IMG/VR virus record: IMGVR_UViG_3300045988_090936
Length of the DNA stretch: 58,728 nt
Reading direction: 5' to 3' (one strand)
Source: a virus
Made by a program: the position numbers and the translations under genes. How positions within the stretch are numbered: position 1 is the stretch's first letter; each line of letters begins with the position of its first letter. The notes under the pieces are model-generated. The model did no database searches. It saw nothing but the letters and a program-made list of their open reading frames with translations, and was not told where the DNA came from. This document shows positions 1,571-57,141 of this stretch, piece after piece.

Positions 1571-2502
1571 AATATTACTCCTATCAACCATTCCCAAGCA
1601 TATTGAGCTGGCATTCTACCACTTCTAATATCTTTATCAAGTTTATCTAAAGCCCATCTAATATCTAGTAAATCATTTTTAGTATATGGTACTCGATAAT
1701 CTCTTATCTCTTTTACTCTACCCCAGTATTCTCCAGCGTTATATGCTTTTGTTCCACCATCCCACTTTCCATAGATTTTAAGATATATGAAAATGTTAAC
1801 AGTGTTATATAGTTCAGGTATATAACTTAAGATATTACATTCATTCTTTTTTATGATGTTATAATATTCAGCTAGAAGATATGAATCTCTTGTTATAAAT
1901 GCATCAGCAAATTGTTTAGGAGTAGGTATTTCTTTTCTATCCATAAACAAACAAGCATAAGTCATTGCATCTATAGCATCATCATGATTCTCAACATAAT
2001 GATTATATTTGTTCATTTCCTCCACGATATTATTATACGAATTGAAACAATTATAAGCTATTCTCTTTGCGAAGTCTAATTTTATTTGATGGTTTTCTTT
2101 ATTAACATATTTGATAGCTATATCATTAGTTACATAATTAAAGGTAGTAATATAATCTTCAAATACTTTTTTGAATACACTCTTTTCTGGTATTTCATCA
2201 TATATCAATACAACACAATGCTTTCTAGATAATTCAATAAGTCTTTCATATACCTTTTCTTTTTGTTTAAGGTATTCCATATCATTGTATACAACATAAA
2301 CTAATTTAAGCTGAAATAAACTCTTTTTCTCCAATTCCTTATAAAGGTCTTGAACACTTTCTAAATATTTAATATTACCGTATAATTCACCTATTTTTTG
2401 ATAGTATATTTTTCTTATTAAATTCTCTTCCCCAGTAAAGATGTATAGATTATTTACTACCCCATCTTTTAATTCTTTTTTCAAATCTACTAATGATTTC
2501 AT
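1567..2502 (-). CDS. holA: DNA polymerase III delta subunit-like clamp-loader protein
   Basis: N-terminal LYIFTGEENLIRKIY pattern, size, and position directly after the DnaX and delta-prime homologues. Confidence 0.55.
   Translation of the reverse strand: MKSLVDLKKELKDGVVNNLYIFTGEENLIRKIYYQKIGELYGNIKYLESVQDLYKELEKKSLFQLKLVYVVYNDMEYLKQKEKVYERLIELSRKHCVVLIYDEIPEKSVFKKVFEDYITTFNYVTNDIAIKYVNKENHQIKLDFAKRIAYNCFNSYNNIVEEMNKYNHYVENHDDAIDAMTYACLFMDRKEIPTPKQFADAFITRDSYLLAEYYNIIKKNECNILSYIPELYNTVNIFIYLKIYGKWDGGTKAYNAGEYWGRVKEIRDYRVPYTKNDLLDIRWALDKLDKDIRSGRMPAQYAWEWLIGVIL
2032..2039 (-). promoter_or_regulatory. CGTATAAT motif copy (internal to the holA-like gene)
   Basis: Minus strand AATTCGTATAATAATATCGTGGAGG. 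Confidence 0.25.
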
Positions 2503-3299
2503 TCTACCATCTCCATTAACATATTATGAATAAGCATTTTATAGTTACTTATTGCTATTTTATTCAGTTGATATAGGGTTTTTTCAATAGCTTTGATATA
2601 TTTATATGAGCCATTTACTTTACTTACTATACCTGATTCTAATAACTCTAAATAAATCTTTATCTTATCCACATCATCATTACTAGACCAAAACTTATTT
2701 GATATTGTTCCAATGTCTTCAAGTTTCATTCCCTTTAATATGGCATCAATAGTAAAATTAGATAACTCAATTAGTTCTTCTATATCCTGCCTTTCTTTAT
2801 ATTTTCTTAATATGGATGGAGTAATATCCATTTTATAGTCGTTAATTAACGTATTTAACAAGGTTTCATCAAAAGACAGTATATTTATATAGTCTAATAT
2901 GTTTTCTTTAGAATATGGTTGAATATTCATATTATATGCCCTTGATACTAATGTATCTAGGAAATTATATGCTGATGTGGTTACTATTATCTTTGTTCCT
3001 GCTGGTGTTTCCTCTGCTACTTTAAGTAATGCTGCTTTGGCTGCTGGGCTTGATTTTTCAAAATCTTTAAAATGATAAACACAATTGTTATTATTTCTAT
3101 CACTTGATTCTACCAAACCTCTTATTGTATCTACCTTATTATCTAATAACTTATAGTGCATACCATAATGGTTAGCAATATACTTTACTAAATAAGTTTT
3201 ACCATAATGTTCTGGACCTCTTATTAAGATAAAAGTACTATTATCTATTTTTCCATTATCAATTAAATCTTTATTCTTTTCTTGTCCTACTAAATACAT
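2499..3299 (-). CDS. holB: DNA polymerase III delta-prime-like AAA+ clamp-loader subunit
   Basis: RGPEHYGKTYL P-loop-like motif; AALLKVAEETPAGTKIIVTT and TLVSRAYNMNIQPY match the LLKxLEEPP...SRC pattern. Confidence 0.65.
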   Translation of the reverse strand: MYLVGQEKNKDLIDNGKIDNSTFILIRGPEHYGKTYLVKYIANHYGMHYKLLDNKVDTIRGLVESSDRNNNNCVYHFKDFEKSSPAAKAALLKVAEETPAGTKIIVTTSAYNFLDTLVSRAYNMNIQPYSKENILDYINILSFDETLLNTLINDYKMDITPSILRKYKERQDIEELIELSNFTIDAILKGMKLEDIGTISNKFWSSNDDVDKIKIYLELLESGIVSKVNGSYKYIKAIEKTLYQLNKIAISNYKMLIHNMLMEMVE

Positions 3300-4345
3300 C
3301 TCTCAATCACCCAAGCTTCCAATAATACTTTAATATCCATCTTCGGTGCATTGATTACATTGTAAAGCTTTTGTGTATAATCTCTTATTTGATTAGTAAT
3401 GTTTTTAGGACAACTTTCTAAAATATCATTCGGAAGATTAGATACGCTAGTATTATTTAGTATTAAATATTTTTGTAAGTTTAATAGAAATTCAAAATAC
3501 ATATTAAGTAATAATCCCATATCTATTCCACTCATAAAGAATTCATCTAACTTCTTAATTGCTGCTTCTGTATTCTTACTTAATAATAGTTTTGTAAAAT
3601 CATATAATTCATATGGTGTTACCCCACTAGATAATACTTTAACTACATTTTCTAATGATAAATTCTTGTTATATTGTAAACATTTATCTAATGTTGTAAT
3701 AGCATCTCTCATTCCACCTTGTGCTTGTTTTGCTATATAATCAATAGCAGCATCTTCATAAGTAATGGCATTGGCTTCATATTCTCCTGGTGCAAAATCA
3801 TTTCCAGCTTTATTACACATTTCTTCATTCTCTTGTTCAATTATGTATTTCAATCTTTTGATTATACCCTCTTTTGATATTCTTTGGAAGTTATATCTTT
3901 GTACCCTTGATAATATAGTTCTTGGAATCTTTTGTGGGTCTGTTGTACAGAATATAAAGATTGTACTAGCTGGTGGTTCTTCTAATAACTTTAACATTGC
4001 TTGCCAAGCTGCATTTGATAATGAGTGACACTCATCTATTATGTATATTTTATATTTACTATCTAATGCTTTAAACTTACTATCATTGATAATCTTTCTT
4101 ACATCATCAACACTATTATTTGAAGCTGCATCTAATTCTATTGGTTTACCTTTACCATCATTTATCATATCAGCAACTATTCTTGCACAAGTAGTTTTAC
4201 CAGTACCAGCACCACCACAGAATAAATAAGCATTTCTAATATCATTATCTTTTATTTGATTTTCTATGATGGTTTTAATTGCACCTTGTTCTGATACATC
4301 TTCAAATCTTTTTGGTCTATATTTATTTGCTAATGGTTGTGCCAT
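3290..4345 (-). CDS. dnaX: DNA polymerase III gamma/tau-like clamp-loader ATPase
   Basis: KYRPKRFEDV, GGAGTGKTT (Walker A), IYIIDECHSLS (Walker B), LLKLLEEPP, TILSRVQRYNFQRI. Confidence 0.9.
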   Translation of the reverse strand: MAQPLANKYRPKRFEDVSEQGAIKTIIENQIKDNDIRNAYLFCGGAGTGKTTCARIVADMINDGKGKPIELDAASNNSVDDVRKIINDSKFKALDSKYKIYIIDECHSLSNAAWQAMLKLLEEPPASTIFIFCTTDPQKIPRTILSRVQRYNFQRISKEGIIKRLKYIIEQENEEMCNKAGNDFAPGEYEANAITYEDAAIDYIAKQAQGGMRDAITTLDKCLQYNKNLSLENVVKVLSSGVTPYELYDFTKLLLSKNTEAAIKKLDEFFMSGIDMGLLLNMYFEFLLNLQKYLILNNTSVSNLPNDILESCPKNITNQIRDYTQKLYNVINAPKMDIKVLLEAWVIERCI

Positions 4346-4348
4346 TTA

Positions 4349-4726
4349 TTATTCCTCCTCATCAGTTTCTTCTTCAATACCAAAGTATCCTAGTAATCTT
4401 TCTGTTGACATATAATAATGACCTCTTTGTGCTAATCTAGTTGTGAATACTCTTAATTGCCATCTTGTTTTAAAATAAGTATCCACTAGCTCTTTACTAG
4501 CACCAGGTTTATCTGCTTTATATTCTATCAACATTCTAATAAGGTTTAAGTATTTATCTTTATTGATATTTAATGCAATTACTTCTTTACCTTTACTTGC
4601 ATACTCTAATGCTTCTTGTAAAGTAAATTGTTGCATCCCACCTTTATCTAATAAAGTTCTTTCAATCTTAACTGGTCTACCAACTCTTTTAAGTTGTTTC
4701 TTACAATATTCTTCAGATATTTTCAT
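4349..4726 (-). CDS. hypothetical protein with acidic C-terminus
   Basis: ORF in the gene train; no recognisable motif. Confidence 0.5.
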   Translation of the reverse strand: MKISEEYCKKQLKRVGRPVKIERTLLDKGGMQQFTLQEALEYASKGKEVIALNINKDKYLNLIRMLIEYKADKPGASKELVDTYFKTRWQLRVFTTRLAQRGHYYMSTERLLGYFGIEEETDEEE

Positions 4727-5356: not shown

Positions 5357-5374
5357 AATATTACCTCCTCATAG

Positions 5375-6421
5375 TTAATTATACGAAATCAATGCTTCTA
5401 ACTTCTTAAACAATTCCTTGTTTTCTTTTATTACTTTTATAAGATTTGGTTTACCTTGAATCTTTTCATCATATAATACTTCTCCTGTATCAGGATTGAT
5501 TATATCATAGTAAGAACCTCTTTGTAATATTGCTCCAAGCTGTATTAGTACATCTATAGTATCTGAAATATAATCTATACCTTCTAAATAATTTAATGTA
5601 TAGAATCCCATTCTTCTATCACTTCTACAAACTTTAGATTTTTCTATTTTTACTTTTACTAAATTACCAGCTGGATTCTCTGCCCCTCTAGTTAATTCTT
5701 TGTTATTAACATCTATGAAATTTCCTTGTTGGAACATTAACCTTACAGAACAATTATGCTTGAATCCTCTTCCTCCTGGTGTTATGAATTCATTATATGG
5801 ATTATTTAAGTCTTCTCTCACTTGGTTAATCATAATACACATACAATTATATTTTCCAAGTAATGGTACTATTATATTACAAAACTTTGTAAGAGACATT
5901 GCTATTCCACCATATTGTTTTTTCTCTATATCTTCCTCGAATGCTGATTTACTAACTAATTGAGCCACACTATCTAAAACTATTAAACCTATTTCTCCAG
6001 TTTCAATTACTGTTCTCATAATTTCAAATATTTGTTCAGCATATTGCTCTTGTGGTTTAATAAGTAATAAGTCTTTTACATTAACTCCAAGTTTAGTAGC
6101 CCATTCAACATCGAATGTATTTTCTGCATCAACAAAACAAACTCTTCTCTTTTCTGTTTTATTCTTTTTGGCTTCTTCAGCAAACTTTATTTGACATTGT
6201 TTTACCATATCTAAAGCTGTAGTAGTTTTACCACTTCTTTCAGCTCCGGCAAATTCTATCATTCTACCCATTGGTAAACCACCATACATCATATAATTTA
6301 ATCTTGGAGAACTAAATGGGACTTTTTCATATTTAATAAGTTCAGCATCATTACCATTAAAGGCAATTTCTTCTTTATACTCTTTATTGATTTCTTTAAT
6401 AATCGAATCTAATTTACTCAT
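5375..6421 (-). CDS. recA: RecA-family recombinase
   Basis: GAERSGKTT Walker A; LIVLDSVAQL Walker B; RecA-like loop region MINQVRED...GGRGFKH. Confidence 0.85.
   Translation of the reverse strand: MSKLDSIIKEINKEYKEEIAFNGNDAELIKYEKVPFSSPRLNYMMYGGLPMGRMIEFAGAERSGKTTTALDMVKQCQIKFAEEAKKNKTEKRRVCFVDAENTFDVEWATKLGVNVKDLLLIKPQEQYAEQIFEIMRTVIETGEIGLIVLDSVAQLVSKSAFEEDIEKKQYGGIAMSLTKFCNIIVPLLGKYNCMCIMINQVREDLNNPYNEFITPGGRGFKHNCSVRLMFQQGNFIDVNNKELTRGAENPAGNLVKVKIEKSKVCRSDRRMGFYTLNYLEGIDYISDTIDVLIQLGAILQRGSYYDIINPDTGEVLYDEKIQGKPNLIKVIKENKELFKKLEALISYN
5378..5385 (-). promoter_or_regulatory. CGTATAAT motif copy
   Basis: ATTTCGTATAATTAACTATGAGGAGG, 21 nt before the ATG of 5030..5356; overlaps the recA stop. 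Confidence 0.45.
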
Positions 6422-7436: not shown

Positions 7437-7447
7437 AAATAATCCTC

Positions 7448-11262: not shown

Positions 11263-11270
11263 ATTATACG
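11263..11270 (-). promoter_or_regulatory. CGTATAAT motif copy
   Basis: AATTCGTATAATAATAGTGAAGGAGG upstream of queD. Confidence 0.45.
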
Positions 11271-14005: not shown

Positions 14006-14066
14006 ATCTTTTCCTCCTTTTAGTTTTTCAAGTGGATTGGGTTGTGGATACCTTCCACCTAATATT

Positions 14067-14074
14067 ATTATACG
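14067..14074 (-). promoter_or_regulatory. CGTATAAT motif copy
   Basis: ATACGTATAATAATATTAGGTGG, overlapping the polA stop and upstream of gat-queC. Confidence 0.4.
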
Positions 14075-16346: not shown

Positions 16347-17147
16347 CTAGTACCCGCCGTTACCGTTATTTATAGTTCTACGATTATTATTCATTGGTGC
16401 AGCTGGTTGTTGGTAACCATAATTAGGTTGTGGACCATAACCTTGTGGTACTCCATATTGTTGTGGAGCTGGTTGGCTATAATCTTCAACTCTAGCTGGT
16501 TGACCAAAGTTATTATAGTTATTACCTCTTGGTTGGATACCTGGGTTTTGTACTGGAGCTTCTTGATTATTACCTGGAAGTACTCCTGTTCTTGTAAAGT
16601 TATCCATTTCATCATATGATAACTCTTTAATTATTCCTTGTTCAACTACATCAATAGGTTCTCCTAATTGTTCTAAAGTAGTTCCATCAACTGGTAATGG
16701 AATAACTGAATAAGTTGTTCTAGGATCTCCCTTTGCTCCATTTCTTTTAATCTTAAATGGAATTGAACATAATGGAGTATCTTTATACTCTATAAATAGT
16801 GGTTGTAATGTCTTTTCAAAGAATGAACCACCTCTTTGCCATACCTGTGCCTCATTTGCATCTTGGTTAAACACATTTAGATAAACACTCTTTCTAATTG
16901 GGTTTCCTGATGCACATAAAGGACATACAGATAATGGTGCTGAATTATCAGGTCTTAAACAACTGATAACCTTTCTGTTTCCTTCACTATCCTGTACTTC
17001 GTGAATAGTATCTACAATAATTTCTTCTAATGAATTATACATGAATCTAACTACTGCAGAATCACCATCATTACTTAAAGATAGAAAGTTAGTTCTTCCA
17101 CCACCTGATGGAAATTGCGCTGCTTGGGCTGGATTTAATCTTGCCAT
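16347..17147 (-). CDS. gp32-like ssDNA-binding protein with a Q/N/G/Y/P-rich C-terminal tail
   Basis: AVVRFM..., H-x13-C-x12-CPLC zinc-motif layout reminiscent of T4 gp32; sits next to the polymerase. Confidence 0.5.
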   Translation of the reverse strand: MARLNPAQAAQFPSGGGRTNFLSLSNDGDSAVVRFMYNSLEEIIVDTIHEVQDSEGNRKVISCLRPDNSAPLSVCPLCASGNPIRKSVYLNVFNQDANEAQVWQRGGSFFEKTLQPLFIEYKDTPLCSIPFKIKRNGAKGDPRTTYSVIPLPVDGTTLEQLGEPIDVVEQGIIKELSYDEMDNFTRTGVLPGNNQEAPVQNPGIQPRGNNYNNFGQPARVEDYSQPAPQQYGVPQGYGPQPNYGYQQPAAPMNNNRRTINNGNGGY

Positions 17148-17180
17148 AATTTTTCCTCCTTCATTTTGCTTCCTATATTT

Positions 17181-17188
17181 ATTATACG
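17181..17188 (-). promoter_or_regulatory. CGTATAAT motif copy
   Basis: T8-ATTCCTCGTATAATAAAT directly after a terminator, upstream of the SSB gene. Confidence 0.5.
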
Positions 17189-17193: not shown

Positions 17194-17227
17194 TAAAAAA
17201 AAGAAGGATTATAAAGTAAATCCTTCT
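17194..17227 (-). terminator. rho-independent terminator
   Basis: Minus strand AGAAGGATT-tactttat-AATCCTTCT followed by T8; overlaps the stop of 17209..17796. Confidence 0.7.
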
Positions 17228-17796
17228 GAATAATTATTCGATAGTTTAAATTGTAAATTACTTAATAGTTCTTTATATTGTTTTAAAGTAATATTTAAGT
17301 GTTTACTAATCTCATTAGATTTATAACCGGCATCTATAAGTTTAACTAATGCTGATTCCAATCTGTTTAAATCATTTTCACTTATGAAATCATCTACTGT
17401 GAAATAATCTATTTCTCTTGATGGTTCATAGTTAATCTCCTCTTTTAATTGATCTAATGAATATGCTGATTCATTAAACTCATATTTCTTTGTTCTTTGC
17501 TTTTCTATGTAAGATATATATTCACATCTTAAAGCATTACCATAATAAGTTAATACCTTACCTTTACCACTGTTTAGTTTTGGAAGGCATCTAAATAATA
17601 CCTCCATCGCAATACTCATTTTATCTTCATATGGTATTGTAACATATTTGCTGCCAATACTTACACTGAATGCCTTAACCCCATACCATAATTGATTAAA
17701 ATATAATTCATTCTTTGTTGAGTTATACAATTCTGCTAACTCCTCTAAATTAAAACCTTGTACCCCTGATATTTCATTTTCACTTTTCATCTTCAT
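17209..17796 (-). CDS. sigma-factor-like transcription regulator (region 4-type HTH)
   Basis: C-terminal LESALVKLIDAGYKSNEISKHLNITLKQYKELLSNL HTH; has its own TTGATT-N17-TATATT promoter. Confidence 0.45.
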   Translation of the reverse strand: MKMKSENEISGVQGFNLEELAELYNSTKNELYFNQLWYGVKAFSVSIGSKYVTIPYEDKMSIAMEVLFRCLPKLNSGKGKVLTYYGNALRCEYISYIEKQRTKKYEFNESAYSLDQLKEEINYEPSREIDYFTVDDFISENDLNRLESALVKLIDAGYKSNEISKHLNITLKQYKELLSNLQFKLSNNYSEGFTL

Positions 17797-17942: not shown

Positions 17943-17971
17943 AATATATGATATTGAAATTAAAAAATCAA
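17943..17971 (-). promoter_or_regulatory. housekeeping-sigma-type promoter (TTGATT-17 nt-TATATT)
   Basis: Minus strand TTGATTTTTTAATTTCAATATCATATATT with an A-rich upstream element, in the 212-bp gap upstream of 17796. Confidence 0.55.
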
Positions 17972-20944: not shown

Positions 20945-21565
20945 TCAATTTTTATTATACGAATTATTCATTACCTCATAAGTATCCGGAAATAGCATTT
21001 TATATTTTACTTTTAAAAGTTCTATAGTATTCTTTACAATATGCTTAACTTCTTTCATTGTTATGTTATGGGCGCTGGCAACTGTTCTTACCCCACGCTC
21101 TTCAATTATTCTTTCTATAAAGATTTCATATTCCTCTAAAGTAATATCTTCTTTATTAAGTAATTCCTTTAAACAGAATTCTATATCACTTTCCTCTTCC
21201 ATACTATTTTCTAAACATAAAACATCTTCTAATCTTATTGGTCTTTCACCATCATTGTAAATAATTTTTTCAAAACTATCTATTTCTACTTTTCTTACCC
21301 TTCCTGTAGTTCCTATAACAGGAGGTTTTACTACTAAATCTCTTTGTATGTATTCTTTTAAGAACCATTTAATATTCTTGACGGCATATGTAGAAAACTT
21401 TTTACCACTTTCTGGTTTGAAATTATCTACACATCTGATTAACTGTAAACAACCTTGTTGGAAATAATCATCATACTTACTTTTATCATATTCTAAAAGA
21501 TTAAGAGCATATCCAACTAGCGGCATGTTTTCAACTATCATTACCTCTCTTTCTTCCTTTGTCAT
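20945..21565 (-). CDS. sigma-70 family RNA polymerase sigma factor
   Basis: Region 2 pattern ENMPLVGYALN...DDYFQQGCLQLIRCVDNFKPESGKKFSTYAVKNIKWFLKEYI; C-terminal HTH. Confidence 0.75.
   Translation of the reverse strand: MTKEEREVMIVENMPLVGYALNLLEYDKSKYDDYFQQGCLQLIRCVDNFKPESGKKFSTYAVKNIKWFLKEYIQRDLVVKPPVIGTTGRVRKVEIDSFEKIIYNDGERPIRLEDVLCLENSMEEESDIEFCLKELLNKEDITLEEYEIFIERIIEERGVRTVASAHNITMKEVKHIVKNTIELLKVKYKMLFPDTYEVMNNSYNKN
20954..20961 (-). promoter_or_regulatory. CGTATAAT motif copy
   Basis: AATTCGTATAATAAAAATTGAGGAGG upstream of the loader gene; lies within the end of the sigma gene. Confidence 0.45.
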
Positions 21566-21570: not shown

Positions 21571-22536
21571 TTAATATCCTTTCTTGATAAACGATGGAAC
21601 AAAGTTTTCTCTGTTAGCACTTGGTGGCTCATTTTTGAAATCCATATATGGTGTTGTTCCATTTCCTCTCAAGGCAAACTCTATTTTCTCTAATACCTGG
21701 TTTACCATTACTTTTCTTCCTTTGGTTCCTGGAATACTTATACTAGTGCTATTATACAAATAATCTAAAACTTCATGCCATTCTTCTAAAGTCCAAACCG
21801 CCCTCTGTCTATTTACTTGAATTACATAATTGGTTAAAGCATTACTAATATCTTTATATGCTATATAGTAATCTTTTATCGCATCAATGTATGGTGCTAG
21901 ATTAACCCCTTGTTTTCTTTTCTTTGGTTTCTCCTCGACCGGCGCTGCGGGTTCCAAGAAATCTTTTTCGAATACGTTTTCCTCTAAAACAACTTCATTA
22001 CCCATTTTAGTATTATTATTTATTTCATCTTTCCCATCTTGTGCCCCCGTGGCACTATTAGTTAATATATCTTTAGATATATTACTAATAGATGGATTAT
22101 TTATTATATTATTATTTAATTGGTGGTTATTTATAACCATACCCCTCTGGTTATTTTTAACCCCACCCCCGTTATCAATAACTATAAATAATTTTCTAAA
22201 AGAGATTTGTTTTGTGGTAATTATTTCACCATTCTTTTCTTTCTTCTTCTTATAAACAATTTCTCTTTTGAGATAACCAAGATTGACTAATTTAGTTATT
22301 GAATCTCTTACTCTGCATTCACTTTTATTTAGCATCTTTGCTATATAAGCATTACTAGCCCAGCAGTATCCTTCTTTTCTACATAGACCAGTTATAGCAG
22401 AATACAGAATTCTTTCAAAGTCAGTTAGTCTTTCATCAGTTAAAATATCATATGTCAACATCAAAAACTGTGAACTGGAATACTCTTGTTCCTTTTCTTC
22501 CGGCTCTATTACATAACCATTCTCATCAAATTCCAT
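21571..22536 (-). CDS. replication initiation protein (winged-helix N-terminus, DnaD-like C-terminus)
   Basis: LTDFERILYSAITGLCRKEGYCWASNAYIAKMLNKSECRVRDSITKLVNLGYL, typical of phage replication initiators. Confidence 0.6.
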   Translation of the reverse strand: MEFDENGYVIEPEEKEQEYSSSQFLMLTYDILTDERLTDFERILYSAITGLCRKEGYCWASNAYIAKMLNKSECRVRDSITKLVNLGYLKREIVYKKKKEKNGEIITTKQISFRKLFIVIDNGGGVKNNQRGMVINNHQLNNNIINNPSISNISKDILTNSATGAQDGKDEINNNTKMGNEVVLEENVFEKDFLEPAAPVEEKPKKRKQGVNLAPYIDAIKDYYIAYKDISNALTNYVIQVNRQRAVWTLEEWHEVLDYLYNSTSISIPGTKGRKVMVNQVLEKIEFALRGNGTTPYMDFKNEPPSANRENFVPSFIKKGY

Positions 22537-22559: not shown

Positions 22560-22567
22560 ATTATACG
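22560..22567 (-). promoter_or_regulatory. CGTATAAT motif copy
   Basis: T8-ATATCTCGTATAATTATAATTGAGGAGG directly after a terminator, upstream of the initiator gene. Confidence 0.55.
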
Positions 22568-22989: not shown

Positions 22990-22997
22990 ATTATACG
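22990..22997 (-). promoter_or_regulatory. CGTATAAT motif copy
   Basis: GATATCTCGTATAATTATTATGAGGAGG after a terminator, upstream of 22595..22969. Confidence 0.55.
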
Positions 22998-23385: not shown

Positions 23386-25074
23386 TTATTCATCATAACT
23401 TTCTTCTTTGAAGATACATCTAATAAACTTCTTAAATTCTTTTGAATCTTTTCCATCTACTAAAATATCTCCAAAACTTGCCTTCTCAATAATCATTTTA
23501 TTAAGAAGTTCATCATAACTATCTTTCATAAGTAAACTAATTACTGTTACAGTATGTTTAGTTCCAATTCTATGTGCCCTATCTTCAGCCTGTTCCATAG
23601 TTGCTTTGTTCCAAGGTAAATCTAAAAAGACTACTATTGATGCTTCATTTAAAGTATGTCCTGTACCAGCTGCCATTGTTTGTCCGAATAGTACTTGGAA
23701 ACCTGGTGTGTTTTGGAATGTATCTTTTTGTTCTTGTAATTCTATTTGATTCATTTGACCCCATATATGCAAAGGCTTCATATCTTCAAATTCTTTTAGA
23801 GCCATTTCTATTAACTCTCTAAACATACTAAATACAATTACTTTCTCACCAGTTAATTGAGCTTCCTCTAATATATCTCTTAACTTTTCAAACTTGGTAC
23901 TCTTTACTACTTGGGTACTAACTAATCCAGTATGACAAAGTACTTGTCTCATTCTAGTTAACTTTGGTAATATCAATGTTGGATTTGAAATCTTATCACA
24001 TTCTTTTTTAGTTGCATTAACAATTTCATTATACAATCTTCTTTCATCGTTTGACATTTCAAGGTATATATCTTGATGTATCTTTTCTGGAAGGTCTAGT
24101 AAATCTTTAGTTCTTCTTAACATATTGTTATTCATTAACTCTTGTAACTCTCCCATATTTTGATAACCAATAGGTGTTCCCCATATATCTTGTACTGTAT
24201 AACGATTCATAAATTGATAATAGTTCATAGTTAATGCTTGAATGAAACTTAATGGCATATACAAATCCATTGGTTTGTTAACTAATAAAGTACCACTTAA
24301 ACCAATCTTTTGACATCCTTTAATTTTTAGTAATCCTCTACCTTGCATAGATGTTGGATTCTTGGCTTTATGAATTTCATCTACAATAACTAATCCTAGT
24401 TCTCCATCTTTTATAAACTCATTGATAATATCTACTATCTCTGATTTATAGAATCTACCTTCTTTATGGCAGCGTAATGTTTCTATATTAGTTATCCAGA
24501 AGAATTCTTCAGGCTTACTTTTTAAGTCTTCTATTCTTTCATTCATAGTTGGTTCTTTTCCTGGTTTAGTAAAACCTATTACCTTACCACTTTCATCACT
24601 ATGTTTCTTTATTTCATCTATCCAATTATATTTTAAGTTATTAACTCCACAAATAATAAGACAATGTTTTAGACCATTATGTTCTTTCTTCCATACTGCC
24701 AAGTCTATCATTTGTTTTGTTTTACCTAAACCTTGTTGGTCTCCTAATAACCAATTGTTATGTTCAATACCATATTTAACACCTTCCAACTGATGTGGAA
24801 AAGAAGGAGTTTTGAATTTAAGTTCTTTTATATCCACAACTGCTGGTGGTGCAAATATTGGTGCCTCATTTAGTTCTTTTATATCAGGTTCAAATTGTTT
24901 TACCATAGGAACCAAATTAAGAGGTATCTCCCATTCCTTTCTCGAAGGATTCCAGAACCTACAAGGTAGTTTCTTTATTTCTTCAACATACATTGGATTA
25001 TAAGTAAATGATAAGTAGGCACTAAAATCATTAACATTCTGTTTATCAGGTTCGCCATATCTTATATAAATCAT
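23386..25074 (-). CDS. SNF2-family helicase
   Basis: LGDQQGLGKTKQ (motif I), VIVDEIHKAKN (DExH), C-terminal helicase domain with QAEDRAHRIGT. Confidence 0.88.
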   Translation of the reverse strand: MIYIRYGEPDKQNVNDFSAYLSFTYNPMYVEEIKKLPCRFWNPSRKEWEIPLNLVPMVKQFEPDIKELNEAPIFAPPAVVDIKELKFKTPSFPHQLEGVKYGIEHNNWLLGDQQGLGKTKQMIDLAVWKKEHNGLKHCLIICGVNNLKYNWIDEIKKHSDESGKVIGFTKPGKEPTMNERIEDLKSKPEEFFWITNIETLRCHKEGRFYKSEIVDIINEFIKDGELGLVIVDEIHKAKNPTSMQGRGLLKIKGCQKIGLSGTLLVNKPMDLYMPLSFIQALTMNYYQFMNRYTVQDIWGTPIGYQNMGELQELMNNNMLRRTKDLLDLPEKIHQDIYLEMSNDERRLYNEIVNATKKECDKISNPTLILPKLTRMRQVLCHTGLVSTQVVKSTKFEKLRDILEEAQLTGEKVIVFSMFRELIEMALKEFEDMKPLHIWGQMNQIELQEQKDTFQNTPGFQVLFGQTMAAGTGHTLNEASIVVFLDLPWNKATMEQAEDRAHRIGTKHTVTVISLLMKDSYDELLNKMIIEKASFGDILVDGKDSKEFKKFIRCIFKEESYDE

Positions 25075-25100: not shown

Positions 25101-25108
25101 ATTATACG
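25101..25108 (-). promoter_or_regulatory. CGTATAAT motif copy
   Basis: ACCACGTATAATATAATTACGGGAAAGGA upstream of the SNF2 gene. Confidence 0.4.
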
Positions 25109-28783: not shown

Positions 28784-28812
28784 ATTATAGGCGATCTTTA
28801 TGGAAAAATCAA
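28784..28812 (-). promoter_or_regulatory. housekeeping-sigma-type early promoter (TTGATT-17 nt-TATAAT)
   Basis: Minus strand ATGCCTTGATTTTTCCATAAAGATCGCCTATAAT. About 40 nt including the upstream A/T tract is nearly identical to the element at 57780..57808. Confidence 0.7.
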
Positions 28813-28854
28813 GGCATAATTTAAAATTCATTAAAAAACTTTTAATTTTTTACA

Positions 28855-30476: not shown

Positions 30477-31094
30477 CTACTTTTTAATAAGCATTTCTAG
30501 GTTTTCCTCGATAAAGAATTTTAGTCTTAATAAACTTTCTCTATCATTATTATTATATGTCTTATGGTAATCATTAACATATTGTATTGCGATGAATCCA
30601 ATCGGCTCTCCTTGTTTATTGTTTAAAATAATGTCATAGAAAGATTTAATATCTTGTGCCTTTTTGAGTGAATAAGTTGCCGGCATTGTTTCCTTTAAAT
30701 CTTCAATATCTTTTACCTCTAATTGATTTTTATCTAATAATGTTTTTATGAACTTTGGTATACAACTTAATGGGATTGATTGTAATTTCATTTGATGACT
30801 AGTAATTCCTTGTCGTAGTACCTCATAAGTACATGATGTCTTTAAAGCACTTCTTCCGTTAGCATAATGTTCTCCGTTATGAAAATCATATAACTGAACT
30901 CTATCTGCATTTAATAATTCTTTCGCTTGTTCCATTCGTCTAATTATCTCTGTATCAATTCCTGATTGTCTTTTTATTTTAGACGGTATAGTTTCTTCCA
31001 CTTGCTTCTTCAATTTAGTAAATGCTAGTAAAACTCCAGTGAAAGCTGATATCAATGCTGTTAATGCTAATAAGAATGCTGTTAACCATTCCAT
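30477..31094 (-). CDS. membrane-anchored protein with a GAF-like soluble domain
   Basis: N-terminal TM (LTAFLLALTALISAFTGVLLAF). ADRVQLYDFHNG...IGFIAIQYV resembles a GAF-type fold, by pattern only. Confidence 0.4.
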   Translation of the reverse strand: MEWLTAFLLALTALISAFTGVLLAFTKLKKQVEETIPSKIKRQSGIDTEIIRRMEQAKELLNADRVQLYDFHNGEHYANGRSALKTSCTYEVLRQGITSHQMKLQSIPLSCIPKFIKTLLDKNQLEVKDIEDLKETMPATYSLKKAQDIKSFYDIILNNKQGEPIGFIAIQYVNDYHKTYNNNDRESLLRLKFFIEENLEMLIKK

Positions 31095-35373: not shown

Positions 35374-35411
35374 ATCTAATTACCTCCTTCTTTTCTTTAA
35401 TTATTTTATGT

Positions 35412-35892: not shown

Positions 35893-36356
35893 TTAACTTA
35901 CTCTTTTCCACATTTTTACTACTATATAAGGTTGGAGGTTTCCACTATTTCCAGTATTAACTCCTCTTACACCCTTTGTATATACAGCGCCTCCTTGAGA
36001 TACTTCTGTATTTGTTGCTACTCCGTATCCACCAGCTGGTGCGGGTATTGGAAAATCACTATAATAAGTATAATGACTATGTTCCTGTATATATTTACTA
36101 CCACCAGTTTTTAGCAAAGTATTAAATTCCGTTTGTGAAGTATCAACTCCTACAAGACATCTTCCTGTTCCAAAAGTTTCCCAAGTACCGCCAAAGTAAG
36201 TAGAGGGATTAGTATTAACAGTAGATATAAATATGGAACCTACCGGATAAATATTATCAAGTAAGTTATTTAGATAATACCATCCCCCCCCCTCTTATGT
36301 ACTATTGAGGTTGAAGAAAGGTATAAACTATTTTTTAATTTTACTGCTTTTGACAT
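35893..36356 (-). pseudogene. receptor-binding tip protein, cassette B, interrupted by a frameshift at a G9 tract (phase-OFF allele)
   Basis: ATG at 36356 gives MSKAVKLKNSLYLSSTSIVHKRGG, then the frame breaks at the G9 run and stops after 28 aa. With 10 G the frame runs to 35893 (154 aa, ending KMWKRVS). Confidence 0.8.
36284..36292 (-). repeat. homopolymeric G9 tract (C9 on the plus strand) inside cassette B
   Basis: Plus strand cat-ccccccccc-tctt, counted directly. Confidence 0.9.
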
Positions 36357-37288: not shown

Positions 37289-37391
37289 TGGCATCACCTA
37301 ATCTATTTATACCTCCTTCCGGAGATATATGAGAAGGAGAACAACTTAAATAAGTTCTTCCCCCCCCCCCTCGAATTATTCTAAACATCAT
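37281..37391 (-). CDS. 36-aa leader ORF containing a G11 tract, ending on the cassette D start codon
   Basis: AAAGGAG RBS 9 nt before ATGATG; MMFRIIRGGGGRTYLSCSPSHISPEGGINRLGDANG; its stop TAG overlaps the ATG of cassette D (ATGGCTAG). Confidence 0.4.
   Translation of the reverse strand: MMFRIIRGGGGRTYLSCSPSHISPEGGINRLGDANG
37360..37370 (-). repeat. homopolymeric G11 tract (C11 on the plus strand)
   Basis: Plus strand ttctt-ccccccccccc-tcgaa, counted directly. Confidence 0.9.
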
Positions 37392-38957: not shown

Positions 38958-39656
38958 CTAACTAGATGGAATTGAAAGAACTTGACCTGGATAAATCAAA
39001 TTAGGATTTCCACCTATAATACTCTTATTATTATTATATGTATAAATCTCTCTCCACCTAGAACCACTACCAAGAAATTTTTGTGCTATCTTCCACAAGG
39101 AATCTCCACTAATTACTGTATATTGTTTAGGTATTGATTTTTCCACTGGTCTATTACTATTGGTTGTTGTAGGTGCTGCACTAGAAACAGTTCTACCACT
39201 ACTATCCACAACCATATAACCATTGCTTACTGGTTTAAGTATTCTTACATTATGTTCTTTATATTCCTTTAAACTTAAACTATAATCAACATCATCAGTA
39301 CCAAATTGATAAGTATGTTCAAAACTCTCAACACTTACTAACATATTGATATCTAATTGGGTTATTATCAATCTAAATGGTTTTCTATCTTTCTTTATAT
39401 CCTCGAAGAACTTAACATAGAATTCTGGTCCTTCAAATCCTCCACTAGTATTGATATACCCTTCTCCATTATCCCTCGCAGGAAAGAAGGATTCGATAGA
39501 TAATTCCTTTAACCCAGCGAATCCAATATCATTGATTTCTCCTTGTCCTACGGTATCAACAGTATTATTATTGGCTTGACCACTAATAGTAATACTCTCG
39601 GGATTTACAGGAAGCTGTATAATTCTCTCATTGTACTTTGCAAAGAAACTTATCAT
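38958..39656 (-). CDS. XkdP-like LysM-domain tail protein
   Basis: C-terminal [27 protein letters not shown]...[10 protein letters not shown] LysM. Confidence 0.7.
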
Positions 39657-44706: not shown

Positions 44707-44707
44707 A

Positions 44708-45202
44708 TTACATATCCTCCTTTTCTTTATTTATTATATGTTTATCTAGGTAATTAGTTTTAACTTTATCCATATCTAAATACTGAATAGTTCTCATTGG
44801 AAATACTATATCAAAATGTAATACTTTATCCACTATAGTTACTTCTATATTGTTTATTCTATTACTTTTAGAATATACTTTATTTCCATCTATGTTAACT
44901 ATTTCTAAATATCTAAATAATTGTTTCAACTCATCAATTTTATCATTGATATCCTTTACCTTGTTATTCTTATTATCTGTGAAATACTTAATTTCATATC
45001 TATATGTATCATCAGTTAGATGGTATTGATGTCCTGTATAACCTTTCTTGGAATTATCATCTATCTTTTGTACATGGAAAGATGGTTTCTCAAATCCTTG
45101 TTCGATTTCCTCATCATAATAATGATAGTTATCTCCAAAGTGATTAGATAATGCATATACGATTGAACCAAGTATTATATTTTCAGTTATCTCTATATTC
45201 AT
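44708..45202 (-). CDS. tail completion / terminator-like protein
   Basis: Called from position upstream of the sheath gene only. Confidence 0.35.
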   Translation of the reverse strand: MNIEITENIILGSIVYALSNHFGDNYHYYDEEIEQGFEKPSFHVQKIDDNSKKGYTGHQYHLTDDTYRYEIKYFTDNKNNKVKDINDKIDELKQLFRYLEIVNIDGNKVYSKSNRINNIEVTIVDKVLHFDIVFPMRTIQYLDMDKVKTNYLDKHIINKEKEDM

Positions 45203-49014: not shown

Positions 49015-49125
49015 AAATAATCTCCTCCTCTATTATTCCGCTTTTTTCCGAGGTGGCGCGATATTACTATACAATTGATAGTAAATCTTCCTCGAATAAA
49101 GTCAGTAATCATTTATTCTTTATTA

Positions 49126-50766
49126 TTATATGTTTTTATTTTTGATTATTTCTTCCATATAATAGTAAACTATTTTGTTCTTTACTTTTATATCAGTTAT
49201 TCTAAAAGTAGTATTTCTTTTGAATATTACTTCTTTATTAACTTTATAATTTAATACCTTCTTACCAACATCTCTACCAGTTTTACTAACAATAACAAAT
49301 CTGTATTCAGCATTATCATAATACTTATTTTTCTTTGTACTAAATAGATACTTTCTAGGAACCCATTCATCACCAATACTTAAACCATCAAGTGGATTAT
49401 TATTTCCTGGTCTTATATCTGTTGTTACCTCCCCATTGAAGTATTCTATTTTATCTAAAGCATCATCAATATTTTTAATTAACTCTTTATCAGCATCACT
49501 TAATTCTATTTGATTAGATAACTTATTATTAAGATTATTGATAGTTGGACCTTTCATTGTTAATAATGTTTCTTTGTATTCACTTGGTAAAGTTTTTACT
49601 GCATCTGGATTAGTATATGTTATACTTGTTTCTCCAGTTGGTGTCATATCTACATAAGATATGGCAGCTACTAAAGATGCTAAATCATTTCTAGTTGATG
49701 CAATAGCTTGTGCTTGCTTTTCATCTCCTAGTTCTTCTTTTAGGTAATCAATATAGTTTCTATTTTTACCCATAACTGATTTCCCAGTATTAACATCTCT
49801 ATATATTCTCTTATCTCCACCTTTATCTATTTCCTCATCCATTACTGGTGCTATAACTGACCTACAATATGGATGAAGTGGTGGTACATTTAATCCTATC
49901 TTGGCATTCTCTATATCAATAATAGTTCCATCCATTGCTCTACATATTTCAGAAGTCTTCATATCTAATGTTGCTACAAATTCTAACTTTTGTACTCCCA
50001 TTCTTTTGTATGTATCTAATAAAGACATATTATCCATTCTTGCTGATTCTGTCATTATTAACCTGGCAGCATTATTGTATCCGGTATCCATTTTCTTTGC
50101 TAACTCTTTTGCCATATCATCAAAACTTCTACCAATAGCCATTCCTCTAATAACAGTTTCATCTAATGCTTTAATTAACTTTTCTTTATTACCCCATATA
50201 TTTTCTGAAAAACTTCCTCCACCTGACCAATTCTCATTGATTAAACTTTGGATTCTATCTTTATCTACTTTAGCGAATACCTCATCATTATTTAGATATT
50301 GATTATAGTAACTTGTATTGGTATATATCTTTTCTAGAAATTTCCCAGCTGTTTCCTCCATATCAATATCATATATAACTTTTCTATATTCAGTTTGTAA
50401 TTGGTTTAGTACTGAATGTTTATGCATCAAGGATTGGTTTAATAAATATTGTTTCCACTTTGGATCTCCTTGATGTTCTTGAGCTAATCTAATATATTCA
50501 TTAACATCTGCTTTATATTCTGTTTCCATTTTCTTTGGCAGTTGTTTGTATGCCTCTTTTAATGTTATCTTATTATTTGAGGCATACCTTGCATATACAT
50601 TAGCCATTTTCTTTTCTATATCTCTTTGAGCTGCATCATAAATACCTTTTATTCTTTTCAAATAATCTTCCTCATTCTCAACAGCTCTTATTTCTGTATC
50701 TAATGCTCTTGACTGCCAATAGTTAGAATTTTTCTCTAATAACTCTTTTAGTTTATCTGAATTCAT
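49126..50766 (-). CDS. minor head protein (Mu F / SPP1 gp7-like) with C-terminal ADP-ribosyltransferase-like extension
   Basis: TESARMDN...TSEICRAMDG...PPLHPYCRSVIAP Mu F core. The C-terminal ~180 aa carry R / FSTK / NKEVIFKRNTTFRI, resembling the R-S-E ART triad. Confidence 0.7.
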   Translation of the reverse strand: MNSDKLKELLEKNSNYWQSRALDTEIRAVENEEDYLKRIKGIYDAAQRDIEKKMANVYARYASNNKITLKEAYKQLPKKMETEYKADVNEYIRLAQEHQGDPKWKQYLLNQSLMHKHSVLNQLQTEYRKVIYDIDMEETAGKFLEKIYTNTSYYNQYLNNDEVFAKVDKDRIQSLINENWSGGGSFSENIWGNKEKLIKALDETVIRGMAIGRSFDDMAKELAKKMDTGYNNAARLIMTESARMDNMSLLDTYKRMGVQKLEFVATLDMKTSEICRAMDGTIIDIENAKIGLNVPPLHPYCRSVIAPVMDEEIDKGGDKRIYRDVNTGKSVMGKNRNYIDYLKEELGDEKQAQAIASTRNDLASLVAAISYVDMTPTGETSITYTNPDAVKTLPSEYKETLLTMKGPTINNLNNKLSNQIELSDADKELIKNIDDALDKIEYFNGEVTTDIRPGNNNPLDGLSIGDEWVPRKYLFSTKKNKYYDNAEYRFVIVSKTGRDVGKKVLNYKVNKEVIFKRNTTFRITDIKVKNKIVYYYMEEIIKNKNI

Positions 50767-52517: not shown

Positions 52518-52559
52518 ATGTATTCCTCCTTCTTTATTATTTCTTTATTTATTTTATGT

Positions 52560-53195: not shown

Positions 53196-53373
53196 TTGAT
53201 TTCCTCCCCAGCTTTTTCTCATAGTATACTTTATCATTTTCATATATGGTAAAGGTATCTATATTATCACTTACTTCAAAGTTCTTTAATATAGAAAGGA
53301 ATATACCTGGTTTATCATATTCTGCCATAAATATATTCCTTCCATCTCTCATAGTTGCATATAAACTATACAT
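53161..53373 (-). CDS. hypothetical protein
   Basis: Start moved to MYSLYATM, 9 nt after AGGAG. Confidence 0.45.
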   Translation of the reverse strand: MYSLYATMRDGRNIFMAEYDKPGIFLSILKNFEVSDNIDTFTIYENDKVYYEKKLGRKSNEGIYQKRKIR

Positions 53374-53385
53374 ATTATTCATCTC

Positions 53386-54870: not shown

Positions 54871-55082
54871 ACTAAATCTCCTTTCACTATATCTCATTAA
54901 CTATTTTCTATTATATCTATACCTTTTACTTTAATTAGAGGATAATCTTTATTCTCTATATCTTATATTCTTATTATTAGATAATCATTATTATTCCTCT
55001 TTTATATTTTATGTATTTTATTCCATAATATTATGTAGTTATTATCTCCCATTCTCTTATTCCGCGAAAACGATTTTTATAC

Positions 55083-55112
55083 ATAAAAATAAGATGGCAT
55101 TTCTACCATCTT
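55083..55112 (-). terminator. rho-independent terminator inside the ORF-free gap
   Basis: Minus strand AAGATGG-tagaaatg-CCATCTT followed by ATTTTTAT. Confidence 0.6.
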
Positions 55113-55425
55113 TAAAAGGTTTTACATTATTCGAATTATTAAGGAGATTTGATTCAATAATAATTATTTGAATAATGAAAGGTTAGTGAGGGACTCTTGA
55201 CTTACACAAGATAGATATTTCCCATATCATCCCTCATAAGAAATTGGGATAAAACCTTATAGTATGCAACTGCAGTAATACATCTATCGCCTTTTAGTTT
55301 TTTATGTATATAGATATTATTGGATTAGTCGGCACCAGGTAAGAACTCTTTTCTCGAACCTCTATATACAACCCTTTATATAAAATGGATTAGGAAGCTA
55401 CCGCTATTACTGTATCCTTTTACCC
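55083..55425 (-). ncRNA. candidate structured non-coding RNA of about 340 nt (class unknown)
   Basis: Bounded by a CGTATAGT -10-like element (55432..55439) and the terminator at 55083..55112. No ORF longer than 16 codons; locally GC-richer, with nested hairpins including a 50-nt three-way junction at 55187..55236. Confidence 0.3.
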
Positions 55426-55431
55426 TAGTTC

Positions 55432-55439
55432 ACTATACG
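55432..55439 (-). promoter_or_regulatory. CGTATAGT, a one-mismatch variant of the CGTATAAT motif
   Basis: Minus strand AAACGTATAGTGAAC in the ORF-free gap. Confidence 0.3.
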
Positions 55440-55483
55440 TTTATAAGCGCCATTACTTACTAGGAACCATTATTTATAATATG

Positions 55484-55765
55484 TTACTTATATGGATAAC
55501 TTTCATCTGGATGGAAATCTATTGCACTATAGAATAATTCTTTCCATTCATCTGCTTCCATTCTGCAATTATATAATTCTTGATTTCTAGATATTAAAGC
55601 ATTATCTATATCATTATATTGTTTATCCTTTTCTTCTATTTTAGTATTTAGTACTTTAATATCTCCTCCGCGTTTAACTGATTGTGTTATACTAATTATT
55701 AAAGTAGATAGTAATACAATATTTGCTATTAGTAATATCCAAAAACCTTTTTGATACCTTTCCAT
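55484..55765 (-). CDS. membrane-anchored hypothetical protein
   Basis: TM FWILLIANIVLLSTLIISI. Confidence 0.5.
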   Translation of the reverse strand: MERYQKGFWILLIANIVLLSTLIISITQSVKRGGDIKVLNTKIEEKDKQYNDIDNALISRNQELYNCRMEADEWKELFYSAIDFHPDESYPYK

Positions 55766-56065
55766 CTATCCTCCATATGTTGCTAGTACTAATCTAGCAA
55801 TAGCATTGTTGTAATATTCCTCTTGTTTTTGTAATTGTTGTTTAAGAATTTCTACCTCATGTTCTTTATTATATAATGCCATTGTTAAATCCTGGTTCTT
55901 TCTTTCTAATTCATCAGTTGCCATTTTTATTTGTTCTTCTACTGATGGTTCTTGAACTGGGATTTCAGGCATTGCTGGTAATTCTTCTATTTCTTCTAAT
56001 GCTAAATCTTCTAATGGAATTTCTTTTAGATTAGTTTCTTCTACTGCTTTCTTTGATCTTGCCAT
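55766..56065 (-). CDS. hypothetical coiled-coil protein
   Basis: ORF in the gene train. Confidence 0.5.
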   Translation of the reverse strand: MARSKKAVEETNLKEIPLEDLALEEIEELPAMPEIPVQEPSVEEQIKMATDELERKNQDLTMALYNKEHEVEILKQQLQKQEEYYNNAIARLVLATYGG

Positions 56066-56445
56066 TATTTTTCCTCCTCTTCATCAAATAATAATGCTCC
56101 AGCTCTCATCATTATTTCAGGTATAACTCCTACTGGGCTAATATTTCCTCCAGTTGCTTGAGATATTTGTTGAGCCATTGTTGCCATAGCACAAGCTGTC
56201 ATATCTAATACACTATCTACATCTCCACATATTTCAGTTTCACATCCATATCCATTTCTTTCAGAATCTTCATCAATATGAATATGAAGTTTAGCTGGTT
56301 CCTCTTCATCTTTCTTTGGTTCTTTTACATCTTTGAAAGCATCATTTAATTGCTTTTCAATTTCCTTCATAGCTTCTGCTTTTAATTCTTCTTTTGATTT
56401 ACCTTTTCCATTGATTTTAATTTCTTTAATAATAACCTTTTCCAT
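56065..56445 (-). CDS. hypothetical protein
   Basis: ORF in the gene train. Confidence 0.5.
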   Translation of the reverse strand: MEKVIIKEIKINGKGKSKEELKAEAMKEIEKQLNDAFKDVKEPKKDEEEPAKLHIHIDEDSERNGYGCETEICGDVDSVLDMTACAMATMAQQISQATGGNISPVGVIPEIMMRAGALLFDEEEEK

Positions 56446-56663
56446 TATTTTGTTTCCTCCTTATATAATTTCTTTTCTTCCTCATTTAACCAATGAGCTA
56501 CTCTTTTCTTTGTTTTAGTATCTAAATAAATACCTTTGATATTTCCTTTATCAGAAGTATATGTATAAAGTAATTTCATATTATCTTTTACTTTATCCCA
56601 TTCTTTTCCTTGTAACCTTTCATATCTTTTAGGTTGTAATTCTTTTTCATTATTCTTCATCAA
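56445..56663 (-). CDS. hypothetical protein
   Basis: ORF in the gene train. Confidence 0.5.
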   Translation of the reverse strand: MMKNNEKELQPKRYERLQGKEWDKVKDNMKLLYTYTSDKGNIKGIYLDTKTKKRVAHWLNEEEKKLYKEETK

Positions 56664-57141
56664 TTATTTCCTCCTCATTATTATTATACGAACTAAAGAT
56701 TTCGTTATTTGATATTATTTCTCCTTTACGCTTTCTTGGTAAAGATTTATCTTCATTCATTGCATCCAACTCTTCTTTTGTATATTGTCTAAAGTTATAA
56801 GTTGTTTGTAATGATTTATCTTCTTTATGTAGTTCTGCTATTAAGAAATCTCTATGATTCCTTTCGCCAAGTTTCATTCTATTTTTACCATAGACATTCC
56901 ATAGCTCCCACATTTGTTTCATATACCTTCTTTCTATTCGAAGGTTTTGTAATTCATTTATTAGTTCTATAGCACCTGATCTTGTTATAGGTGTTACTTC
57001 TAAATAATGTAAAATATCTCTTATCTTCCACTCAATATCATCCAGCTGGTTTACATAGTTGTGAACTTCTTCTTCCATAGCGGTAAGATTATTTATACTA
57101 CTTATTACTTTGTTTAGCAGTTCCTCTTTCTTTCTTGCCAT
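56650..57141 (-). CDS. hypothetical protein
   Basis: ORF in the gene train. Confidence 0.5.
   Translation of the reverse strand: MARKKEELLNKVISSINNLTAMEEEVHNYVNQLDDIEWKIRDILHYLEVTPITRSGAIELINELQNLRIERRYMKQMWELWNVYGKNRMKLGERNHRDFLIAELHKEDKSLQTTYNFRQYTKEELDAMNEDKSLPRKRKGEIISNNEIFSSYNNNEEEIIDEE
56683..56690 (-). promoter_or_regulatory. CGTATAAT motif copy
   Basis: AGTTCGTATAATAATAATGAGGAGG upstream of 56445..56663. Confidence 0.45.

Follow-up and report, generated by a model that had tools for sequence, protein, structure and literature searches.

In the 58,728-nucleotide (nt) stretch of DNA analysed here as a whole (the window; IMG/VR record IMGVR_UViG_3300045988_090936), which belongs to an uncultured phage of about 59 kb with all of its genes on the minus, that is, the coding strand, the 8-mer CGTATAAT recurs before genes of the replication region, raising the question of what this word does there. 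We counted the 8-mer itself; together with the T that commonly precedes it, it makes up the 9-base signal (T)CGTATAAT, written TCGTATAAT below. An initial annotation, made from the letters of the window alone, had read the copies as a class of middle promoters independent of a -35 element. Our analysis supports this reading from several sides, namely the anatomy of pooled sites, insertions and deletions next to the motif, the terminators before it, the starts of conserved leaders behind it, its territory in the genome and the sigma-family genes that the phage carries. We consider it very probable that the TCGTATAAT sites are promoters of a -35-independent, middle class, and we regard as likely the fuller explanation, that they form a phage-specific -10-type class without a -35 element within a cascade run by two phage sigma proteins.

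All ten minus-strand copies of CGTATAAT reported in the initial annotation were recovered, each at its own coordinate (Table 1), and the region from 25109 to 56682, which includes the late operon, held none, as had been claimed. The claim that the plus strand has no copy was wrong: one is present there, probably an incidental one since no gene lies behind it. Chance had been roughly estimated to supply a few copies per strand, an estimate considered to need a proper computation. Under Markov models of orders 1-4 we obtained an expectation of 0.56-0.91 copies for the minus strand against the ten observed, and of 0.57-0.69 for the plus strand against the one observed, revealing both an enrichment and a 10:1 strand ratio. 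With both strands summed, 100 dinucleotide shuffles averaged 1.29 copies and never exceeded 5, compared with the real total of 11. Homopolymers aside, CGTATAAT was the most over-represented 8-mer of the coding strand; GGGGGGGG heads the 8-mer list because the tail-fibre cassette region contains two long G runs, G9 and G11 (36284-36292 and about 37340-37350, minus strand). The window has 30% G+C, and TATAAT hexamers are common in it, with 93 on the coding strand and 96 on the other. A literature search for the 8-mer matched only papers containing loxP.

The copies stand before replication, recombination and 7-deazaguanine-synthesis genes and thus mark the replication ('middle') part of the genome. 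All ten contain TATAAT, the hexamer of the sigma70-type -10 element, upstream of transcription units. In line with the initial annotation, which had given 5-7 nt for the second distance, six of them keep a spacing of 20-23 nt from their end to an ATG and of 6-7 nt to a Shine-Dalgarno (SD) sequence, GAGGAGG or GAAGGAGG, while the remaining four end 15, 26, 33 and 61 nt before an ATG; a start codon was counted 15-61 nt downstream of nine of the ten. Three copies, at 17181, 22560 and 22990, do lie right behind intrinsic terminators. Of the extended consensus [TC][TC]CGTATAAT[AT]A[TA], the upstream portion fitted eight of the ten copies and the downstream portion nine.

We then compared the window with its relatives, whose genes were called by a simple rule of open reading frame (ORF) plus SD sequence. 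These were a 97% identical genome (G001), one of about 77% nucleotide identity (G002), and four further lineages of about 59 kb (G005-G008), which were located through a sigma-protein profile search and whose sigma is 36-41% identical. The motif is present in both G001 and G002, and all ten sites of the window recur base for base in G002 despite diverged flanks. Across five further lineages, in four of which the sigma is 36-41% and in one 77% identical, the coding strand carried 10-13 copies and the opposite strand 0-3; for G005-G008 by themselves the figures were 10-13 and 0-2, with 0-3 for a reversed-word control. The expectation across the lineages was 0.4-1.3 copies per genome, and in all lineages analysed the sites were confined to the replication/early part of the genome. 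Between the window and G002, insertions or deletions of 3-12 nt abut the motif on its immediate upstream side at 22990 and 20954, which rules out a -35 element at a fixed spacing. Megablast of the window against cultured phages gave no match, and the closest cultured relatives are distant, with a polymerase 42% identical to those of phiCTP1 and Dp-1.

Pooling the copies of six lineages, gathered via the exact 8-mer, yielded 65 sites, which we numbered by taking the seventh nucleotide after TATAAT as +1. From -64 to -20 the information content was about zero, and this, together with the insertions and deletions just described, bears out the earlier remark that no consistent -35 hexamer exists; an extracytoplasmic function (ECF)-type -35 element (AAC, 16-17 nt from a CGTA/CGTC -10 element), looked for in the same sites, was also absent. 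A weak T/A/T pattern was seen at -19 to -17. T occupied -15 in 58 of the 65 sites, C at -14 and G at -13 occurred in all of them, being invariant by construction because the sites had been collected via the exact 8-mer, and -6 to -4 held A or T throughout but for three exceptions. A check free of this bias, made on the two bases before every TATAAT lying 15-35 nt ahead of a start codon, returned CG 40 times, CA 18 times, TG never and any other pair at most 6 times. The base at -16 depended on the lineage: the window and G002 have T or C there, G005 has A, and 12 of the 13 sites of G006 have G. This speaks for a reader evolving along with the phage. At the predicted start, -1 was a pyrimidine in 49 and +1 a purine in 56 of the 65 sites, and T followed by A was also found at the long-leader sites 14067, 17181 and 25101 of the window. 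The motif ended 19-26 nt before a called start in 38 of the 65 copies, compared with 2.8% expected by position. Directly before 19 of the 65 stood a hairpin with a T-run; a gene behind such a structure cannot be served by a transcript from upstream, which favours a promoter.

Selection on the nucleic acid, which the initial annotation had argued from overlaps between copies and the last codons of upstream genes, could be traced in codon usage. The overlaps themselves were correctly described, including x-V-stop in two genes, except that TCG TAT AAT encodes S-Y-N in four genes rather than three when the internal copy at 2032 is counted. TCG makes up 2.1% of the serine codons of the window, yet four of the five S-Y-N tripeptides of the proteome use it, and these four are exactly the motif copies; selection therefore acts on the DNA word. 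In addition, the sigma genes of all four lineages G005-G008 end in ..SYN.. encoded by TCG TAT AAT, 13-24 nt before the start of the helicase-loader gene, and this C-terminus is kept at 36-41% identity because the motif is embedded in it.

Two leaders behind the sites provide a further view of the putative transcription start, since in both the conserved sequence begins exactly 7 nt after TATAAT, at the predicted +1. The leader of the single-stranded DNA-binding protein (SSB) gene, AGGAAGCAAAA(A)n followed by an SD sequence (17148-17180 in the window, minus strand), is kept in all six lineages and may serve as an autoregulatory operator for SSB. The 48-nt leader AGGTGGAAGGTATCCACAACCCAATCCACTTGAAAAACTAAAAGGAGG behind the 14067 site (14006-14066, minus strand) recurs with 100% identity in G002, where a different gene follows, a plain QueC of 34% identity in place of the Gat-QueC fusion of the window. 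It can be folded into two alternative hairpins, GGTGGA pairing with either of two TCCAC segments. It is a candidate riboswitch of the 7-deazaguanine pathway. Rfam gave no match anywhere in the window, and a preQ1 riboswitch was not called here, as the matches of this leader stayed below threshold.

That the phage encodes one clear sigma factor and one sigma-like protein was confirmed, for g60 by sequence and for g64 by fold. The nearest protein to g60 in the PDB was the sporulation factor sigmaF (1l0o_C, E 6e-14), with an alignment to region 2 and, weakly, to region 4, and its gene belongs to the operon headed by the terminator-preceded TCGTATAAT site at 22560. For g64, Pfam and PHROG gave no match and its profile matched LuxR/sigma4-type helix-turn-helix (HTH) domains weakly, while its AlphaFold2 model (predicted local distance difference test score, pLDDT, 75.5) consists of two helical domains. 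The best 50 Foldseek matches of this model listed against the PDB were sigma chains or sigma-containing RNA polymerase (RNAP) complexes at modest E-values (1e-3 to 0.17), with one RNA-guided transcription complex as the sole exception; the sigmas among the listed matches were sigmaD, H, E, A, 32, B, W and WhiG. In the window g64 forms its own transcription unit between a host-type promoter at 17971-17943 and a terminator at 17227-17202, and its orthologues are likewise stand-alone units in all lineages, with a long leader behind a sigmaA-type promoter (TTGATT/TTGACT-17-TATAAT). No cultured full-length relative of g60 was found, and no cultured relative of g64 at all.

The CA group of the start-proximal TATAAT hexamers resolved into a second class without a -35 element, ACATATAATA, which is new with respect to the initial annotation. 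Across six genomes it occurs 37 times on the coding strand (4-9 in each) and 4 times on the opposite strand (0-1 in each), with about 2.5 expected. Its positions are orthologous, ahead of the genes for portal, scaffold and sheath and where the ORF-free gap before terL opens. The four exact copies of the window all lie in the late region, where CGTATAAT is missing. One-mismatch copies precede the portal gene by 33 nt and gene 36 by 29 nt; one more marks the start of the gap, and another lies 135 nt before terL, behind a terminator at 55112-55091. From its distribution, ACATATAATA is a candidate late-promoter class that complements TCGTATAAT. The variant CGTATAGT that had been noted in the gap upstream of terL is indeed present (55432-55439, minus strand), but a promoter variant is the less likely reading of it: a late-class site precedes it by about 36 nt, the 25-nt block around it is shared unchanged by G002 and G005 and almost unchanged by G008, and it probably belongs to a conserved leader or noncoding RNA that is transcribed.

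Taken together, these results suggest the following course of transcription. (T)CGTATAAT would be the -10-type core that drives the middle genes for replication, recombination and 7-deazaguanine synthesis, transcription would start about 7 nt downstream of the hexamer, and most transcripts would begin at or just before the SD sequence, with leaders of about 14-16 nt. The bases T-15, C-14 and G-13 and the lineage-specific base at -16 would be read by a phage sigma-family protein on the host core RNAP, a reading to which we give a somewhat better than even chance. In the cascade, host sigmaA would read the three TTGATT-N17-TATAAT early promoters, one of them that of the g64 unit; g64, as a divergent two-domain sigma, would then read the TCGTATAAT promoters, one of which would transcribe g60; and the sigmaF-like g60 would in turn read the -35-less ACATATAATA in the late region. 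We infer from positional logic which protein serves which class, and the order host sigmaA, g64, middle genes, g60, late genes appears the most parsimonious. The reverse assignment is disfavoured because a sigma made early would then switch on the late genes, and because g60 would depend on itself behind two terminators.

Tentatively, we also consider that the two phage sigmas share the host hexamer TATAAT, both without a -35 element, and that middle and late promoters are told apart by T-C-G versus A-C-A, in effect by positions -15 and -13 plus the lineage-specific -16, which would amount to a minimal two-letter temporal code; this is possible, and we would not put it as high as an even chance. 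The phage DNA may be modified with 7-deazaguanine through the DpdA/QueC pathway, in which case the discriminating G-13 may be read in a form without N7. The phiEco32 sigma gp36 contacts N7 at both -14 and -13 (PMC12276001).

Several observations weigh against this interpretation. The six genomes are related, hence the pooled counts are not independent and the statistics overstate independence, and the invariance of CG among the pooled sites follows from the way they were collected. The pyrimidine/purine signal at -1/+1 is partly confounded by the purine-rich SD sequence that begins there. Coincidence of coding may account for some of the copies inside genes, where CGT ATA AT. encodes R-I-I. 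Every relative found has both sigma genes, and g64 homologues are found only on contigs bearing g60 homologues, thus the phyletic pattern cannot tell which of them reads the motif; if g60 does, its own operon would be autoregulated. Moreover, a two-domain sigma ordinarily relies on a -35 element as well. That holds for gp36 (PMC12276001), and sigmaW uses the -35 element TGAAAC (PMC5758882), whereas the sites here have none. Finally, the hexamer is the exact -10 consensus of sigmaA, and host sigmaA itself may read the sites.

This last point leads to the rival that deserves most attention, in which the promoters are served by the host sigmaA holoenzyme, alone on a '-10-only' basis or with a phage co-factor that is not a sigma, the phage sigmas acting elsewhere. 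Besides the perfect hexamer, T-15 matches the first base of the TGn extension, and the upstream DNA, AT-rich or a T-run, could play the part of an UP element. However, position -14 is C, unlike the G of an extended -10 element, and before the start-proximal hexamers CG (40) and CA (18) dominate, with TG absent. Furthermore, specificity must come from TCG because the coding strand has 93 TATAAT hexamers to choose from; a conserved host sigma does not easily explain a lineage-specific -16 base unless the hosts differ; and the bona fide host-type promoters of this same genome have the -35 hexamer TTGATT and no CG before TATAAT. We therefore judge this rival unlikely, though well ahead of those that follow.

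A role at the RNA level, with UCGUAUAAU 5' of the SD sequence as a processing site, translational operator or enhancer, would account for the fixed distance to SD and ATG at most sites and for the coding-strand-only occurrence of the motif. Such roles are nevertheless improbable, because many copies lie just past terminators and the SD distance is variable: 19 of the 65 follow a T-run at which the upstream transcript has already ended, and the start lies 15 to 61 nt away in the window, with structured leaders inserted between motif and SD. The motif is also identical to the -10 consensus, and the late region has its own related motif built on this hexamer. As for a DNA site not addressed by RNAP, be it a regulator's operator, a DpdA target or a replication/recombination signal, the phage encodes a DpdA/QueC pathway, the motif has a single G, and genes for HTH proteins lie nearby; of a modification or replication site one would expect neither a strict coding-strand orientation nor a placement before starts and after terminators, and the motif is non-palindromic, unlike most operators, so that we hold this slightly less probable again than an RNA-level role. 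An artefact of composition or codon usage, for which the 30% G+C and the abundance of TATAAT on both strands might speak, is refuted by this analysis: the excess is at least 10-fold over Markov orders 1-4, none of the 100 shuffles reached the observed count, the strands differ 10:1, exact sites stand at orthologous places in genomes of 72-77% identity, and the sites make use of the rare TCG codon.

The proposed class of phage-read, -35-less middle promoters resembles several known systems without coinciding with any of them. T4 late promoters consist of TATAAATA, read by gp55, a region-2-only protein, with gp33 and the sliding clamp. Like these, the sites here are a short extended -10-like element near TATAAT, have no -35 element, belong to one temporal class and would be read by a phage sigma-family protein on host core RNAP; unlike these, their core is CGTATAAT, they stand before replication genes with no copy in the late region, and g60 and g64 differ from gp55 in having sigma2 plus sigma4-like domains. 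The extended -10 element of sigma70/sigmaA, TGnTATAAT, shares with them a perfect TATAAT, T-15, independence of a -35 element and specificity in the bases -15 to -13, yet they carry C-14 and G-13 instead of G-14 followed by any base. In the SPO1 cascade gp28 serves the middle genes and gp33/gp34 the late genes, from promoters that are bipartite (-35 plus -10) and unlike TATAAT. Common to SPO1 and the present phage are a pair of sigma-family proteins, one made from a host-type promoter and the next from the putative middle class, three proposed temporal classes and a strong SD sequence of Firmicutes type, whereas both phage classes here lack a -35 element and share the host -10 hexamer. With a phage-encoded sigma, a promoter class of its own and a temporal cascade, the proposed system works like T4 late or SPO1 middle and late transcription, yet departs from each in the defining motif or architecture.

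Two resemblances to the promoters of other sigmas fit as well but prove nothing. The sporulation factors sigmaE and sigmaK recognize -10 elements of the form CATAcanT / CATA---TA, together with -35 elements. The late motif CATATAATA fits CATA---TA and g60 is nearest to sigmaF, but the late class has no -35 element. The B. subtilis ECF factor sigmaW has promoters with a -10 element CGTA (PMC5758882); the motif also begins with CGTA and ECF sigmas (sigmaE, sigmaW, sigmaH) are among those that the g64 fold resembles, whereas an AAC-type -35 element at 16-17 nt is missing and the element here runs on as a full TATAAT. The phiEco32 protein gp36, acting with gp79, is a small two-domain sigma that reads -14/-13 through the major groove and replaces the host sigma, in addition to its contact with the -35 region (PMC12276001). 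A small two-domain phage sigma that would read the -14/-13 base pairs upstream of the melted region is proposed here too; -35 information is absent.

These findings amount to a predicted transcription map that places terminators and the three promoter classes, early, middle and late, in a widespread, uncultured family of phages of about 59 kb that is undescribed yet very common, its sigma protein alone occurring on hundreds of metagenome contigs. They also point to two small sigma/promoter pairs (9-10 bp, no -35 element), which may be orthogonal, as candidate parts for low-GC Gram-positives, and to a natural case for the reading of -16 to -13 by a sigma, possibly on 7-deazaguanine-modified DNA. 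The general picture of phage transcription cascades is unchanged, the system being of a known kind in an undescribed family.

Table 1. Promoter-like sites and sigma-family genes in the window (site names refer to their first coordinate)
Feature	Coordinates	Strand	Context
TCGTATAAT site	56683-56690	-	22 nt before ATG of 71-aa gene (56445-56660); overlaps S-Y-N last codons of upstream gene; kept in G002, G005, G007, G008
ACGTATAAT site	25101-25108	-	26 nt before SNF2-type helicase gene (23386-25074); overlaps V-stop of upstream gene
TCGTATAAT site	22990-22997	-	Behind terminator 23042-23020; 20 nt before 124-aa gene (function unknown)
TCGTATAAT site	22560-22567	-	Directly behind terminator 22601-22578; heads operon of replication initiator (21571-22536) and g60
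TCGTATAAT site	20954-20961	-	In S-Y-N last codons of g60; 22 nt before DnaC-like loader gene, then DnaB and primase genes
TCGTATAAT site	17181-17188	-	Directly behind terminator 17227-17202; 33 nt before SSB gene, then family-A polymerase
ACGTATAAT site	14067-14074	-	Overlaps polymerase stop codon (V-stop); 61 nt before Gat-QueC; conserved structured leader at 14006-14060
TCGTATAAT site	11263-11270	-	21 nt before QueD, then QueE, FolE, clamp
TCGTATAAT site	5378-5385	-	In S-Y-N last codons of RecA-like gene; 21 nt before Holliday-junction resolvase gene
TCGTATAAT site	2032-2039	-	Inside clamp-loader gene (1567-2502); 15 nt before in-frame ATG; kept in G002, G007, G008, SD behind it not kept
Antisense CGTATAAT copy	2379-2386	+	Position kept only in G001 and G002
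ACATATAATA, exact	49124-49133	-	Late region
ACATATAATA, exact	44732-44741	-	26 nt before sheath gene
ACATATAATA, exact	39032-39041	-	Late region
ACATATAATA, exact	30551-30560	-	Late region
ACATATAATA, one mismatch (ACATAAAATA, ACATATTATA)	55475-55484, 55005-55014, 52550-52559, 35402-35411	-	
g60	20945-21565	-	Sigma-70 family, 206 aa; Pfam Sigma70_r2, phrog_351
g64	17209-17796	-	Divergent sigma-fold protein, 195 aa
Host-type early promoter, TTGATT-17-TATAAT	57780-57808	-	
Host-type early promoter, TTGATT-17-TATAAT	28784-28812	-	
Host-type early promoter, TTGATT-17-TATAAT	17943-17971	-	

Some copies called for separate consideration. The 2032 site lies within the clamp-loader gene, and in the window it is followed by GTGGAGGAA and an in-frame ATG (2014-2016) that would give a 150-aa C-terminal clamp-loader product. 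In G002 the SD sequence at this site has been lost through synonymous changes with the motif left intact, so that it seems to be the promoter, not the internal start, that is under selection. An extra copy of G002 at 16631 was set aside, being an in-gene R-I-I codon string without a counterpart in the window. We also dropped the one-mismatch copy CGTAAAAT at 1431, which is kept in no relative even though its spacing of 21 nt to a gene fits. Another in-gene copy, CAT CGT ATA ATA (H-R-I-I), is kept in four lineages at coding-strand coordinates G005 50882, G006 1526 (numbered on the reverse complement of the record), G007 55614 and G008 54276; it uses CGT, a rare arginine codon in the window (37 of 741), where the corresponding place reads H-R-V-I and lacks the motif. 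For this conserved copy, a promoter within the gene and a coincidence of coding are both conceivable.

Behind the pre-terL terminator, within 54871-55112 (minus strand), every lineage has a CGCG-rich box (TCGTTTTCGCGGAATAAGAG in the window), followed by about 150-200 nt of AT-rich ATATAA-type repeats and then by terL; this region may serve packaging or late control of another kind. At the other end of the proposed cascade, the host-type early promoter regions at 28784-28850 and 57780-57850 (minus strand) share about 45 nt. In most lineages an inverted repeat, TTTATGG-N10-CCATAAA, brackets the -35 hexamer TTGATT, the left arm in the window being TTATGCC, and it looks like an operator for the shut-off of early transcription.

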